Positions 14,313 to 64,000 of a stretch of DNA of 64,000 nucleotides are shown here, piece after piece; positions within the stretch are counted from its first letter, which is position 1; the number at the start of each line of letters is the position of its first letter. The stretch is from Octopus vulgaris (taxonomy: Eukaryota): positions 86,304,001 to 86,368,000 of the forward strand of contig OX597819.1 of NCBI GenBank assembly GCA_951406725.2, given 5' to 3'. The position numbers and the translations under genes are program-made. The notes under the pieces are model-generated. The model searched no databases. It was not told the origin of the DNA and was given only the letters and a program-made list of their open reading frames with translations.

Positions 14313-14535
14313 GGCGTATGTACATATGTATATATCTATATGTATATATATAATTAGGGCTTAGTAAAATAAATTATTTTGCCACATACTGAACTTAGTA
14401 GAAATAGCAGCCAAAAAAAATTTTTTCTTAGCATTTCCACTACTTAAAGAAAAATTCTCTCAGATAATGTTTACTCCAGACAGCTCACGAAGGTTTGGGG
14501 GTAAATACAGAAAAATATCACAAGTACATAGATCG

Positions 14536-14598
14536 TTTGAGTACGTCAACGTTTCAAGATTAGCCAAATAAAATCAGCATTTCTTTCGTCAGCTCAAA
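14536..14598 (-). ncRNA. Type I hammerhead ribozyme
   Basis: Exact reverse complement of the 15814-15876 motif. Confidence 0.85.
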
Positions 14599-15102
14599 AT
14601 TTCTTAATTTGGATTTGGAAACACTAAAAGAAGGAACTTTACCTATCAGTGAACTTGTCGCTTCAGATGAACCACTCCAACTAAACAGTGTCAACAAATT
14701 CAAAATGCGCAGGCGTAAAATTCTGCACTCCCCATTCCACCCACGTGGTCTATCTAGCAAACATTATATTTTAACCGCTAGAACCGAGGCAGTATGACCG
14801 AGAGAAATGAATTATAATATCAACAATTGAGGGTAAAATTAATTAATTAATCAATTTCACCAAGTGTTCAGTATGTAAAAGGACCATTTAAGGCGAATTC
14901 AAAATATTACATTATATAATTAGGGCTTAGTAAAATAAATTACTTTGCCACATACTGAACTTAGTAGAAATAGCAGCCAAAAAAAAATTTTTTCTTAGCA
15001 TTTCCACTACTTAAAGAAAAATTCTCTCAGATAATGTTTACTCCAGACAGCTCACGAAGGTTTGGGGGTAAATACAGAAAAATATCACAAGTACATAGAT
15101 CG

Positions 15103-15165
15103 TTTGAGTACGTCAACATTTCAAGATTAGCCAAATAAAATCAGCATTTCTTTCGTCAGCTCAAA
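15103..15165 (-). ncRNA. Type I hammerhead ribozyme (helix III C-to-U variant)
   Basis: Same motif with GAAATGTTGACGTA. Confidence 0.75.
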
Positions 15166-15813
15166 ATTTCTTAATTTGGATTTGGAAACACTAAAAAGAA
15201 GGAACTTTACCTATCAGCGAACTTGTCGCTTCAGATGAACCACTCCAACTAAACAGTGTCAACAAATTCAAAAGGCGCAGGCGTAAAATTCTGCACTCCC
15301 CATTCCACCCACGTGGTCTATCTAGCAAACATTATATTTTAACCGCGAGAACCGAGTAAACATTGTCTGGAGTAAACATTATCTGAGAGATTTTTTCTTT
15401 AAGTAGTGGAAATGCTAAGAAAAAATTTTTTTGGCTGCTATTTCTACTAAGTTCAGTATGTGGCAAAGTAATTTATTTTACTAAGCCCTAATTATATAAT
15501 GTAATATTTTGAATTCGCCTTAAATGGTCCTTTTACATACTGAACACTTGGTGAAATTGATTAATTAATTAATTTTACCCTCAATTGTTGATATTATAAT
15601 TCATTTCTCTCGGTCATACTGCCTCGGTTCTCGCGGTTAAAATATAATGTTTGCTAGATAGACCACGTGGGTGGAATGGGGAGTGCAGAATTTTACGCCT
15701 GCGCATTTTGAATTTGTTGACACTGTTTAGTTGGAGTGGTTCATCTGAAGCGACAAGTTCGCTGATAGGTAAAGTTCCTTCTTTTTAGTGTTTCCAAATC
15801 CAAATTAAGAAAT

Positions 15814-15876
15814 TTTGAGCTGACGAAAGAAATGCTGATTTTATTTGGCTAATCTTGAAACGTTGACGTACTCAAA
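15814..15876 (+). ncRNA. Type I hammerhead ribozyme
   Basis: TTTGAG-CTGACGA-AAGA(22 nt)TCTT-GAA-ACGT-TG-ACGT-A-CTCAAA: helices I, II and III all pair; GUA cleavage after 15870. Confidence 0.88.
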
Positions 15877-16239
15877 CGATCTATGTACTTGTGATATTTT
15901 TCTGTATTTACCCCCAAACCTTCGTGAGCTGTCTGGAGTAAACATTATCTGAGAGAATTTTTCTTTAAGTAGTGGAAATGCTAAGAAAAAATTTTTTTTG
16001 GCTGCTATTTCTACTAAGTTCAGTATGTGGCAAAGTAATTTATTTTACTAAGCCCTAATTATATAATGTAATATTTTGAATTCGCCTTAAATGGTCCTTT
16101 TACATACTGAACACTTGGTGAAATTGATTAATTAATTAATTTTACCCTCAATTGTTGATATATGTATATATATATATATATATATATATATATATATATA
16201 TATGTATATATATATGTATATATATGTATATATGTATAT

Positions 16240-60260: not shown

Positions 60261-60492
60261 GATATTATATATATATATATATATATATATATATATATAT
60301 ATATATATATATATATATATATATATACAAAATTTAAAGGACTGACCACTAAAAGTGGACGGTCAACATGCTAGATATAGACGTCAAATCGCTATTTTCC
60401 ACAAAGAATATTTTCTCAAATAAAAATCCAGCACGAACCAAAGTATTAAAATTAAGCAAGACAAATGAAAATATACGAAATAAAATGATTAC

Positions 60493-60559
60493 CTATGTAC
60501 CGATCAGTTTCGATTGTTATTATCCATGCATGTGAATACCCGCAATCTCTTCAGCATAG
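60493..60559 (-). ncRNA. Type I hammerhead ribozyme within a solo TA-flanked element (60330-60598)
   Basis: Minus CTATG-CTGAAGA-GATTG(26 nt)CAATC-GAA-ACTGATCGGT-A-CATAG. Confidence 0.87.
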
Positions 60560-60844
60560 TCGACATATAGAAATACAATTTGCAGGACTAGATACAAATA
60601 TATATATATATATATAATTAATCAATATAGGGTGGCAAAAAAAAAATTTTGTAGAATTCTTTGCCACCAGCGGCCTAGTAGGAAAAATTAAAATAGTCAT
60701 AGACCATTTTTAAGTTCAACATCAACAATAAAGGAACGGCCATAATAGGCCATTCACCCACTAGAAATAACAGCCAAAGCTTCAACCGCAAATAAAAGTT
60801 AATTCAGTAAACCAGGAGAAAATTTAAAAATCATTTACCCTGTA

Positions 60845-60951
60845 ATTTCTTATACGATATACCGTTTCATCTGCTGATTAATGGTAAACTAACCTGATTA
60901 AATTAAATCAAGCTAATCTTCCACAGGCCCTCAGATTCTTCAGTAAGAAAT
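60845..60951 (-). ncRNA. Type I hammerhead ribozyme (inverted unit)
   Basis: Reverse complement of 61404-61510. Confidence 0.87.
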
Positions 60952-61403
60952 ATCCCAAGACGGAACAGATATTTTCACGAGGCATTTCCGACGTTGCCAA
61001 GTTTATATCTGACCTAAAATTTTCAAATCGTCGCACTCGCGCCAAATTTATCGGCAGCAAATAAATATAAGCCGTCGATTCCATTACGGAATTAACCAGA
61101 AAATTCATAATTAATCAATTATTCGTTCCTTTATTGTTGATGTTGAACTTAAAAATGGTCTATGACTATTTTAATTTTTTCCCTACTAGCCGCTGGTGGC
61201 AAAAGAATTCTACAAAATTTTTTTTGCCACCCTATATTGATTAATTATGAATTTTCTGGTTAATTCCGTAATGGAATCGACGGCTTATATTTATTTGCTG
61301 CCGATAAATTTGGCGCGAGTGCGACGATTTGAAAATTTTAGGTCAGATATAAACTTGGCAACGTCGGAAATGCCTCGTGAAAATATCTGTTCCGTCTTGG
61401 GAT

Positions 61404-61510
61404 ATTTCTTACTGAAGAATCTGAGGGCCTGTGGAAGATTAGCTTGATTTAATTTAATCAGGTTAGTTTACCATTAATCAGCAGATGAAACGGTATATCG
61501 TATAAGAAAT
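61404..61510 (+). ncRNA. Type I hammerhead ribozyme; repeated at 61896-62002, 62389-62495, 62882-62988, 63375-63481 and 63868-63974
   Basis: ATTTCTTA-CTGAAGA-ATCTG(long hairpin)CAGAT-GAA-ACGGT-AT-ATCGT-A-TAAGAAAT: 8-bp helix I, GUA cleavage after 61502. Confidence 0.9.
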
Positions 61511-64000
61511 TACAGGGTAAATGTTTTTTAAATTTTCTCCTGGTTTACTGAATTAACTTTTATTTGCGGTTGAAGCTTTGGCTGTTATTTCTAGTGGGTG
61601 AATGGCCTATTATGGCCGTTCCTTTATTGTTGATGTTGAACTTAAAAATGGTCTATGACTATTTTAATTTTTTCCTACTAGGCCGCTGGTGGCAAAAGAA
61701 TTCTACAAAATTTTTTTTGCCACCCTATATTGATTAATTATGAATTTTCTGGTTAATTCCGTAATGGAATCGACGGCTTATATTTATTTGCTGCCGATAA
61801 ATTTGGCGCGAGTACGACGATTTGAAAATTTTAGGTCAGATATAAACTTGGCAAATCGGAAATGCCTCGTGAAAATATCTGTTCCGTCTTGGGATATTTC
61901 TTACTGAAGAATCTGAGGGCCTGTGGAAGATTAGCTTGATTTAATTTAATCAGGTTAGTTTACCATTAATCAGCAGATGAAACGGTATATCGTATAAGAA
62001 ATTACAGGGTAAATGTTTTTTAAATTTTCTCCTGGTTTACTGAATTAACTTTTATTTGCGGTTGAAGCTTTGGCTGTTATTTCTAGTGGGTGAATGGCCT
62101 ATTATGGCCGTTCCTTTATTGTTGATGTTGAACTTAAAAATGGTCTATGACTATTTTAATTTTTTCCTACTAGGCCGCTGGTGGCAAAAGAATTCTACAA
62201 AATTTTTTTTGCCACCCTATATTGATTAATTATGAATTTTCTGGTTAATTCCGTAATGGAATCGACGGCTTATATTTATTTGCTGCCGATAAATTTGGCG
62301 CGAGTGCGACGATTTGAAAATTTTAGGTCAGATATAAACTTGGCAACGTCGGAAATGCCTCGTGAAAATATCTGTTCCGTCTTGGGCTATTTCTTACTGA
62401 AGAATCTGAGGGCCTGTGGAAGATTAGCTTGATTTAATTTAATCAGGTTAGTTTACCATTAATCAGCAGATGAAACGGTATATCGTATAAGAAATTACAG
62501 GGTAAATGTTTTTTAAATTTTCTCCTGGTTTACTGAATTAACTTTTATTTGCGGTTGAAGCTTTGGCTGTTATTTCTAGTGGGTGAATGGCCTATTATGG
62601 CCGTTCCTTTATTGTTGATGTTGAACTTAAAAATGGTCTATGACTATTTTAATTTTTTCCTACTAGGCCGCTGGTGGCAAAAGAATTCTACAAAATTTTT
62701 TTTGCCACCCTATATTGATTAATTATGAATTTTCTGGTTAATTCCGTAATGGAATCGACGGCTTATATTTATTTGCTGCCGATAAATTTGGCGCGAGTGC
62801 GACGATTTGAAAATTTTAGGTCAGATATAAACTTGGCAACGTCGGAAATGCCTCGTGAAAATATCTGTTCCGTCTTGGGATATTTCTTACTGAAGAATCT
62901 GAGGGCCTGTGGAAGATTAGCTTGATTTAATTTAATCAGGTTAGTTTACCATTAATCAGCAGATGAAACGGTATATCGTATAAGAAATTACAGGGTAAAT
63001 GTTTTTTAAATTTTCTCCTGGTTTACTGAATTAACTTTTATTTGCGGTTGAAGCTTTGGCTGTTATTTCTAGTGGGTGAATGGCCTATTATGGCCGTTCC
63101 TTTATTGTTGATGTTGAACTTAAAAATGGTCTATGACTATTTTAATTTTTTCCTACTAGGCCGCTGGTGGCAAAAGAATTCTACAAAATTTTTTTTGCCA
63201 CCCTATATTGATTAATTATGAATTTTCTGGTTAATTCCGTAATGGAATCGACGGCTTATATTTATTTGCTGCCGATAAATTTGGCGCGAGTGCGACGATT
63301 TGAAAATTTTAGGTCAGATATAAACTTGGCAACGTCGGAAATGCCTCGTGAAAATATCTGTTCCGTCTTGGGATATTTCTTACTGAAGAATCTGAGGGCC
63401 TGTGGAAGATTAGCTTGATTTAATTTAATCAGGTTAGTTTACCATTAATCAGCAGATGAAACGGTATATCGTATAAGAAATTACAGGGTAAATGTTTTTT
63501 AAATTTTCTCCTGGTTTACTGAATTAACTTTTATTTGCGGTTGAAGCTTTGGCTGTTATTTCTAGTGGGTGAATGGCCTATTATGGCCGTTCCTTTATTG
63601 TTGATGTTGAACTTAAAAATGGTCTATGACTATTTTAATTTTTTCCTACTAGGCCGCTGGTGGCAAAAGAATTCTACAAAATTTTTTTTGCCACCCTATA
63701 TTGATTAATTATGAATTTTCTGGTTAATTCCGTAATGGAATCGACGGCTTATATTTATTTGCTGCCGATAAATTTGGCGCGAGTGCGACGATTTGAAAAT
63801 TTTAGGTCAGATATAAACTTGGCAACGTCGGAAATGCCTCGTGAAAATATCTGTTCCGTCTTGGGCTATTTCTTACTGAAGAATCTGAGGGCCTGTGGAA
63901 GATTAGCTTGATTTAATTTAATCAGGTTAGTTTACCATTAATCAGCAGATGAAACGGTATATCGTATAAGAAATGACAGGGTAAATGTTTTTTAAATTTT

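Follow-up and report, generated by a model that had tools for sequence, protein, structure and literature searches.

Hammerhead ribozyme units of probable Penelope-like origin with paired, fixed ends in (TA)n microsatellites of the Octopus vulgaris genome

We have analyzed a 64-kb stretch of the Octopus vulgaris genome (contig OX597819.1, positions 86,304,001 to 86,368,000; hereafter the window), which has a GC content of 36%, is dense in microsatellites and carries type-I hammerhead ribozymes of several sequence families. We put at roughly 0.8 the probability that these hammerhead units are the 3' ends of coding Penelope-like elements (PLEs) together with their likely non-autonomous derivatives, with ends fixed in (TA)n, likely through nicking by a reverse transcriptase-endonuclease (RT-EN) and copying from internal sites. 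PLEs are the sister group of telomerase. Our findings of two fixed ends per insertion, long tails and a shared RNA fold appear to be new; they are the most informative feature of these elements and were missed by a preliminary description of the window, whose headline rule, that hammerhead elements end in (TA)n, is known PLE biology. In our structural model, the conserved fold likely positions two reverse-transcription starts, one per DNA strand. Hammerhead elements form a large, probably under-annotated part of the genome.

Two descriptors, one strict and one sensitive (score of at least 7 retained in the genome sample), were used to detect type-I hammerheads as stem I, CUGANGA, stem II, GAAAC, a palindromic stem III and GUH. 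The unbiased genome sample comprised 60 evenly spaced 10-kb stretches (600 kb in total), the TA criterion was a (TA)n run of at least four units within 300 nt of the hammerhead, and L-numbered loci are genomic loci beyond the window. With the strict descriptor, the window gave 15 hammerheads, compared with none from 30 local dinucleotide shuffles. Their cleavage sites lie at 14542(-), 15870(+), 33014(-), 44087(-), 44308(+), 44975(+), 58804(+), 60498(-) and 60853(-), with six tandem copies at 61502-63966(+); these six and an extra hammerhead at 15109, detected with the sensitive descriptor, are internal tandem units. At least five families in the window satisfy the descriptor, where at least six had been described: those of the 567-bp unit (F567), the 493-bp unit (F493), the 44.2-kb family (F44), the 60.5-kb family (F60) and the elements at 58.8, 33.0 and 44.95 kb. 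An Rfam scan of the window returned no hammerhead family among the matches listed (150 of 185); those listed were microsatellite-driven, microRNA-like matches, and every one fell under its gathering score. Minimum-energy folds of single hammerheads missed the active core, with three of five no better than shuffles, a result anticipated for dimer-type hammerheads; PLE repeats carry minimal hammerheads of this type (PMC4209133).

Eight of the nine terminal arms in the window reach a (TA)n run of at least four units downstream, at 63-295 nt (window background 0.202). The exception is the arm at 33.0 kb, which had been listed among the weaker elements ending at (TA)n or TA-rich repeats; it runs into degenerate TACA/TATA, and its nearest such run is 2115 nt off. 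In the genome sample, 30 hammerheads were found with the sensitive descriptor (about one per 20 kb), against 0.3 per shuffle, and (TA)n runs of at least five units numbered 832. A downstream run satisfied the TA criterion for 22 of the 30 (background 0.251; p=4e-8). TA was enriched upstream as well (16/29; p=5e-4), and the downstream excess did not differ significantly from it (Fisher p=0.18), so one-sided polarity as a plain count was rejected. The rule put forward in the preliminary description is thus neither one-sided nor universal; one family ignores TA in all four of its copies. This minimal-hammerhead family (L033:1857, L037:2272, L043:7200 and L054:8134), which has AAT-rich upstream sequence and is possibly of Penelope/Poseidon type, accounts for four of the eight TA-less hammerheads in the sample. 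The majority of sampled copies are reduced to short stumps that TA flanks at either end.

The polarity is instead a family-specific fixed 3' junction within a split TA tract. Downstream distances from cleavage site to element end are constant per family, with junctions constant to within a few bases, and 5' ends are variable. These distances are approximately 93-109 nt in the family of the 58.8-kb element (N1), 96-102 nt in a further family (N2), 131 or 237 nt in F493, 190 or 290 nt in F567, and 51-69 or 213-221 nt in F44. Termini of N1 and N2 are followed by at least four TA units in 8/8 and 11/14 copies of the 600-kb sample, respectively, where the background is 6% and three SINE-like (short interspersed nuclear element) controls gave 13/65, 2/51 and 4/13. 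F567 termini were followed by TA in 4/6 and 2/3 cases, some of the misses being internal tandem junctions; several other families queried in this manner had no copy in the sample. Unrelated PLE families were also observed stacked consecutively in one (TA)n tract, at L007, L154, L159 and L066 and at 60266-60616 of the window.

Coding elements stand behind several of these ends. A 5'-truncated element at 57301..58896(+) contains a GIY-YIG remnant (YVGQT at 57328), a long CA-rich 3' untranslated region (UTR) and a minimal hammerhead (cleavage 58804) with its end at cleavage+93 into (TA)n. A search with the remnant led to intact relatives in the genome. At L151 and L152, a hammerhead-bearing repeat flanks an RT and GIY-YIG open reading frame (ORF) on both sides, giving the repeat-ORF-repeat layout of a pseudo-long terminal repeat, and both loci run into (TA)n some 100 nt past the cleavage site. 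Their ORFs contain DKG, GVAMG, RYIDD and IYC..C..C..LYVGQT, with a CX4CxxC linker (CSRSRCNTC in L151; the L060 ORF, described below, has CNDSRCGTC). By motif reading they thus have the Neptune combination of a CX2-5CxxC linker, a CCHH-type EN and a (TA)n end; the Neptune and Hydra labels used here derive from motifs described in PMC8557442 and not from an RT tree. The Pfam RVT_1 match of the L151 and L152 ORFs was weak (E=0.0011, below the cut-off), and Pfam gave no usable match for the window GIY-YIG remnant or for the Hydra-type ORF. The 57.3-58.9 kb remnant matches the L151/L152-type ORF at 50-58% and is a truncated Neptune-type copy. With it belong the shorter N1 units of the window: a stump at 32880..33089(-) with a minimal hammerhead (cleavage 33014) and the degenerate 3' flank mentioned above, and an older N1-related stump at 44899..45065(+) with a minimal hammerhead (cleavage 44975) and a TA-rich end. 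L060 represents a second Neptune-type family, in which a decayed hammerhead precedes (TA)n.

A Hydra-type ORF was found at L159, with a CxCX5C-like linker (CNCRCASEC upstream of the EN core), no CCHH, a 2-kb UTR and a canonical hammerhead 38 nt before (TA)n; the fetched stretch excludes the region of the DKT and RWK motifs. Three Hydra-type ORF matches are followed, 2.9-3.7 kb downstream, by copies of the L159-type end, and in the coding PLEs as a group (L151, L152, L060 and L159) the spacing from hammerhead to (TA)n is 38-120 nt. A first look at the genome gave 13084 Hydra-like and 3982 Neptune-EN candidates, from which the families sampled represent a small share. The Hydra-type expansion, with dozens of copies 97-100% identical and open frames of 600-940 codons, is very young; further Hydra-type families are found at ~65%, with frames of up to 1091 codons. 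Neptune-type 3' UTRs (L151:1085-3970; window 57600-58700) contain 1-2.5 kb of degenerate CA/TACA repeats, and because these are copied with the element, it spreads microsatellite-like DNA. The link to Penelope-like RT/GIY-YIG enzymes made in the preliminary description is therefore borne out by Neptune-type and Hydra-type elements that end in a hammerhead and then (TA)n, and by the 57.3-58.9 kb remnant. Coding PLEs with the same units as terminal repeats, which it suggested looking for, are present for N1 (L151 and L152); among four coding ends, none matched F567 or F493. The units do not form the one non-autonomous system that it proposed: some derive from coding PLEs as 3' stumps, and others (567 bp and 493 bp) are non-coding tandem units.

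Neither F567 nor F493 has coding capacity (longest stop-free frames of 67 and 68 aa); both carry a type-I hammerhead in each unit and form seamless tandems, which agrees with the definition of retrozymes, and they insert with PLE geometry. Together with F44 and F60, they display the inverted copy, one-sided tail and 5' truncation of PLE insertions. First-look candidates in the genome numbered 1723 for F567 and 928 for F493, and the top copies were 98-100% identical (98-99% for F567). The 493-bp unit is also present in contigs of four runs presumed to be RNA; the joint is equally explained by genomic tandems and was counted neither way. In the window, F567 forms a two-armed, tail-out tandem array at 14347..16161 with its centre near 15356-15364; its left arm has a proximal end (~cleavage+190) and its right arm a distal end (~cleavage+290). 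The F493 array at 60614..64000 has the distal end (cleavage+237) on its left arm, and its right arm extends 591 nt beyond the window to a proximal end at cleavage+131 in (TA)n. The F44 palindrome at 43868..44370 ends at cleavage+63 on the right and cleavage+219 on the left, the extension of ~156 nt being family sequence. F60 is a single arm at 60328..60597(-), with cleavage at 60498 and a proximal-type end at cleavage+171; L123 resembles, by eye, a distal-ended F60 copy.

The arrays follow this arrangement almost throughout: they are tail-out palindromes in which one arm stops at the proximal site and the other at the distal site, some 100 nt beyond it. Both ends were callable in 14 of 27 F567 arrays, of which 13 were proximal/distal and one (L106, containing an older 77% copy) distal/distal, and in 11 of 15 F493 arrays, all proximal/distal. 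Mixed ends were thus found in 24/25, for which independent arms with even odds would give p ~8e-7. Among 40 scored F44 loci, eight were two-armed, and the arm opposite the distal one stopped at the proximal site in all eight; the 156-nt extension could be aligned across three loci. A palindrome of a coding Hydra-type family has one proximal and one distal end (1/1), offset by 69 nt, and six single loci of other domain families (see below) are two-armed with the opposite arm stopping within the RNA domain. Tails of 69, ~98-105 and ~156 nt are one-sided, as published, but exceed the published 30-40 bp. Both end types come after a hairpin and a short pyrimidine run. Array centres are scattered over the unit. 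In a tally of 28 arrays that leaves out the mis-parsed L106, 19 have overlaps of 1-18 nt, five are blunt and four contain extra bases; overlaps of 1-2 nt may be alignment noise. The two-end rule is not general across PLEs, since N1 has a single end, with no tailed arm in 22 TA-ended rows.

Predicted folds between and around the two ends are alike in F567, F493, F45 (a small palindrome without a hammerhead at 45315..45680, with a proximal end at 45325 and a distal end at 45677) and the L069 family. Just after a TTCT-like motif begins a helix that closes off two or three hairpins, and the junction formed by these encloses the proximal site; in the 3' part, a GGTG...ACC hairpin is followed by CT, and the distal end lies 10-20 nt on. 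The predicted domain occupies 15994..16162(+) in the F567 array, with the closing helix, inner hairpins, terminal hairpin and distal end, and 61574..61745(+) in the F493 array, where there is one per unit. A model built on these four families retrieved seven more, for a total of 11 non-coding families, and three shuffled versions of the 600-kb sample gave no match to a two-helix descriptor. The 11 domain sequences are 47-76% identical, with fold z-scores of -1.3 to -5.8. RNAalifold, run on an alignment made from sequence only, gave a 13-pair closing helix with two-sided changes at eight pairs and 90.5% of cells paired, and none of 500 shuffles reached its covariation score. Slid controls of the entire two-helix structure were 35-57% paired. 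In single families, the terminal hairpin is strong (z-scores of -5.0 and -4.0). A coding partner of the domain was found in none of 99 sequence sources with model R1 or 61 with model R2. The Hydra-type tail ends, by eye, in a GGTG..CACC-like hairpin, which was rejected as a relative because its fold is not superior to that of shuffles (z=-0.76) and it has no R2 match. One domain-bearing non-coding element (L159:4817-4979(-)) directly abuts a Neptune-type RT that is truncated at its 5' end, TA being absent at the join; this arrangement could be a template switch, although it is a single case that a near-zero TA remnant explains equally well.

Target-primed reverse transcription of these units may be envisaged by analogy with characterized elements. 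A PLE RT-EN, probably a dimer, would nick both (TA)n strands, after which the two 3'-OH ends would prime on a multimeric or circular RNA, one at its distal and one at its proximal site. RNA structure would set both start sites, each of which follows a hairpin by ~5-25 nt. Both cDNAs would stop at random points and then be joined, giving a tail-out palindrome, and the split tract would leave TA on either side of the insertion. The position of the hammerhead, 40-300 nt upstream of the end, follows from its belonging to the same terminal repeat; its likely role is in processing multimers, and the insertion point need not depend on it. The nicking, priming and dimer steps are carried over to these families from PMC11167929 and are thus presumptive; because that study saw no strand difference in vitro, strict one-of-each ends would need a coupled complex. 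We offer more tentatively, and rather as a conjecture, the idea that a superfamily of non-coding PLE parasites keeps a multibranch RNA of ~150 nt that loads a dimeric RT, with subunits at two starts ~100 nt apart, one per nicked (TA)n strand.

Other explanations were weighed against nicking and internal-site copying. It might be argued that, with (TA)n this abundant, an element of any kind would end close to a run, given that 25% of sampled positions are within 300 nt of one and that a SINE-like control was TA-ended in 13 of 65 copies; with (TA)n downstream of 22 of 30 hammerheads (p=4e-8) and junctions fixed to a few bases, this is refuted for the fixed-junction families and we give it almost no weight overall. 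We consider it unlikely that (TA)n instead arises after insertion, growing from AT-rich ends or added untemplated by a telomerase-related RT. The element ends are indeed AU-rich and merge into TA, and tandem junctions of F567 contain short TATATA, but TA also flanks variable 5' truncation points of any sequence, unrelated families share single tracts (L007, L154 and L159), and (TA)n is the preferred target of the Neptune, Naiad and Hydra clades (PMC8557442).

Palindromes could also form by self-priming or fold-back of one cDNA, or from an antisense template, with ends made by endonuclease resolution and the fold serving packaging or circle stability. This carries more weight than post-insertion TA growth, yet we still regard it as doubtful. 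Self-priming and EN-mediated resolution have been proposed (PMC3846280 and PMC8557442), the short overlaps at array centres are compatible with it too, and retrozyme RNAs are strongly self-paired (PMC7229834); the fold might also work at the level of single-stranded DNA. However, arm lengths differ independently and one arm continues in family sequence for 70-156 nt past the point where the other stops, unlike a simple fold-back of one cDNA; moreover, both ends follow a hairpin and short pyrimidine run, and the tail has been mapped to two RT start sites in vitro (PMC11167929).

Several observations weigh against nicking at (TA)n with paired, structure-guided starts. Among them are the upstream TA enrichment, the family that ignores TA, the distal/distal array L106 and the single-ended N1 family, all described above; four further sampled hammerheads also have no nearby TA. 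No significant similarity was detected between F567 or F493 and the four coding PLE ends examined, and a scan of eight loci with filters off revealed no coding element with the conserved domain. The shuffle test for covariation ignores the relatedness of the sequences, and covariation is inflated because seven of the 11 families were retrieved with a model already holding the helix. Taken singly, the closing helix is unremarkable in 4-5 of the 11 families, where 13-83 of 200 shuffles were as good. In the shared alignment, the terminal hairpin is only 62% paired, and an upstream hammerhead is seen in only four of the 11 domain families.

The remaining hammerhead-related features of the window are more decayed. 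An old palindrome at 1610..2001, beyond the range covered by the preliminary description, carries a decayed copy of the conserved RNA domain (E=0.007) and has its left end in (TA)n. Weak sites at 42.2, 53.0, 53.5 and 56.1 kb, which had been counted as ending at (TA)n or TA-rich repeats, failed both descriptors owing to core mismatches or weak stems, but can be read by eye as decayed hammerheads, at 38, 379, 287 and 119 nt from (TA)n of at least four units. They correspond to a hammerhead-like end with two core mismatches at 42205..42331(+), before a 142-nt (TA)n; a minimal-hammerhead stump at 52960..53105(-), like family N2 by eye and 93 nt before (TA)3; an old palindrome with decayed hammerhead-like cores and undefined ends at 53539..53828; and a weak hammerhead-like end at 55945..56150(-). 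Absent from the preliminary description was a 5'-clipped, decayed minimal hammerhead end at 45120..45251(-), 88 nt before (TA)4, which was recognized by eye and failed the descriptors. At 54383..55436(+), a decayed hammerhead is followed by an ORF remnant (VINLS..LG.NF at 55072) that we take to be an N-terminal PLE ORF motif; with 1016 nt to (TA)n of at least four units, this hammerhead falls outside the TA rule.

Other repeats are also present. A near-intact non-LTR retrotransposon at 21438-25600(+) has frames of 537 and 801 aa with RVT_1 and zf-RVT matches, and fragments of it are found at 6.9-10.9, 20.2-20.6, 26.0-27.2 and 31.7-36.7 kb. Its copies end in (AAT)n, making it a second microsatellite-targeted system, presumably R4/Dong-like. 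Its RT ORF (21.4-25.4 kb) was considered as a partner of the RNA domain and rejected, since it belongs to this distinct long interspersed nuclear element (LINE). A SINE-like family of ~170 bp (18800-19920, 25810-26040, 29005-29370, 31280-31625 and 47500-48630) is abundant, occurs in direct and inverted clusters and often adjoins (AAT)n rather than (TA)n. Diverged inverted repeats of ~145 bp (78%), ~1.1 kb apart at 50450-51558 with a SINE-like insert between them, are either similar to miniature inverted-repeat transposable elements (MITEs) or an old palindrome.

Hammerheads, the targeting of TA, copies in inverted orientation and non-autonomous derivatives are all documented in earlier work (Craig 2021; Cervera 2020; Li 2026). 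Our literature search, which covered open texts outside subscription papers, Repbase reports and supplements, found no report of tails of 70-156 nt, strict end pairing or the RNA domain. How PLE tandem and inverted insertions and the one-sided tail are formed was named as an open question in PMC8557442 and is answered in part by PMC11167929. The octopus genome offers thousands of near-identical young insertions, a near-exceptionless two-end rule, a short, covarying and mutable RNA, and numerous open RT-EN frames 700-1000 codons long, and for these reasons a two-nick, two-primer model is directly testable. The RNA domain also enables structure-based annotation of non-coding PLE partners. If true, loading of the RT by this RNA would make the domain the first conserved RNA structure acting in cis in the priming of PLEs, and a single step would account both for inverted copies and for the one-sided tail.

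Among known systems, a survey of octopus repeats describes recently active Penelope-like and Dong-R4 families, its available text mentioning neither hammerheads nor TA targeting (PMC13282606). EN-containing PLEs of the Neptune, Naiad and Hydra clades are described with (TA)n targets, a hammerhead close to the 3' end, copies in tandem and inverted arrangement, a tail of 30-40 bp at one end and non-autonomous partners (PMC8557442). The elements reported here resemble Neptune and Hydra in the RT ORF with a C-terminal GIY-YIG, Cys linker, 3' hammerhead and (TA)n, as well as in partial tandems, an inverted 5'-truncated copy and an extension at one end, but that extension is 69-156 nt here and occurs once per insertion in 24/25. 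Chlamys elements such as MRC1 are likewise non-autonomous PLE partners with head-to-tail insertions in microsatellites; they resemble autonomous 3' ends and mostly have no hammerhead (PMC8557442), whereas no such partner was found for F567 and F493 among the coding ends compared. Metazoan non-LTR retrozymes, considered non-autonomous PLEs (PMC7229834; Li et al. 2026, bioRxiv 10.64898/2026.07.22.740005), are similar in that they consist of low-GC, non-coding units repeated in tandem, each a few hundred bp long and with a single type-I hammerhead, and co-occur with PLEs. The units in octopus differ in that their dispersed two-armed arrays, fixed PLE-type ends in (TA)n and shared 3' fold have no counterpart in the available text of the retrozyme accounts. 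Closest in mechanism is the Poseidon element PAc of Anolis, with its AT-rich target, two internal starts that define the tail, cutting and extension of both strands and a predicted dimer, and for which the hammerhead is dispensable in vitro (PMC11167929). Its start sites are 30-40 nt apart in an AC-rich stem-loop and show no strand difference in vitro, whereas the putative starts of the octopus elements surround a multibranch fold at a spacing of ~100 nt, and their genomic arms strictly carry one of each.

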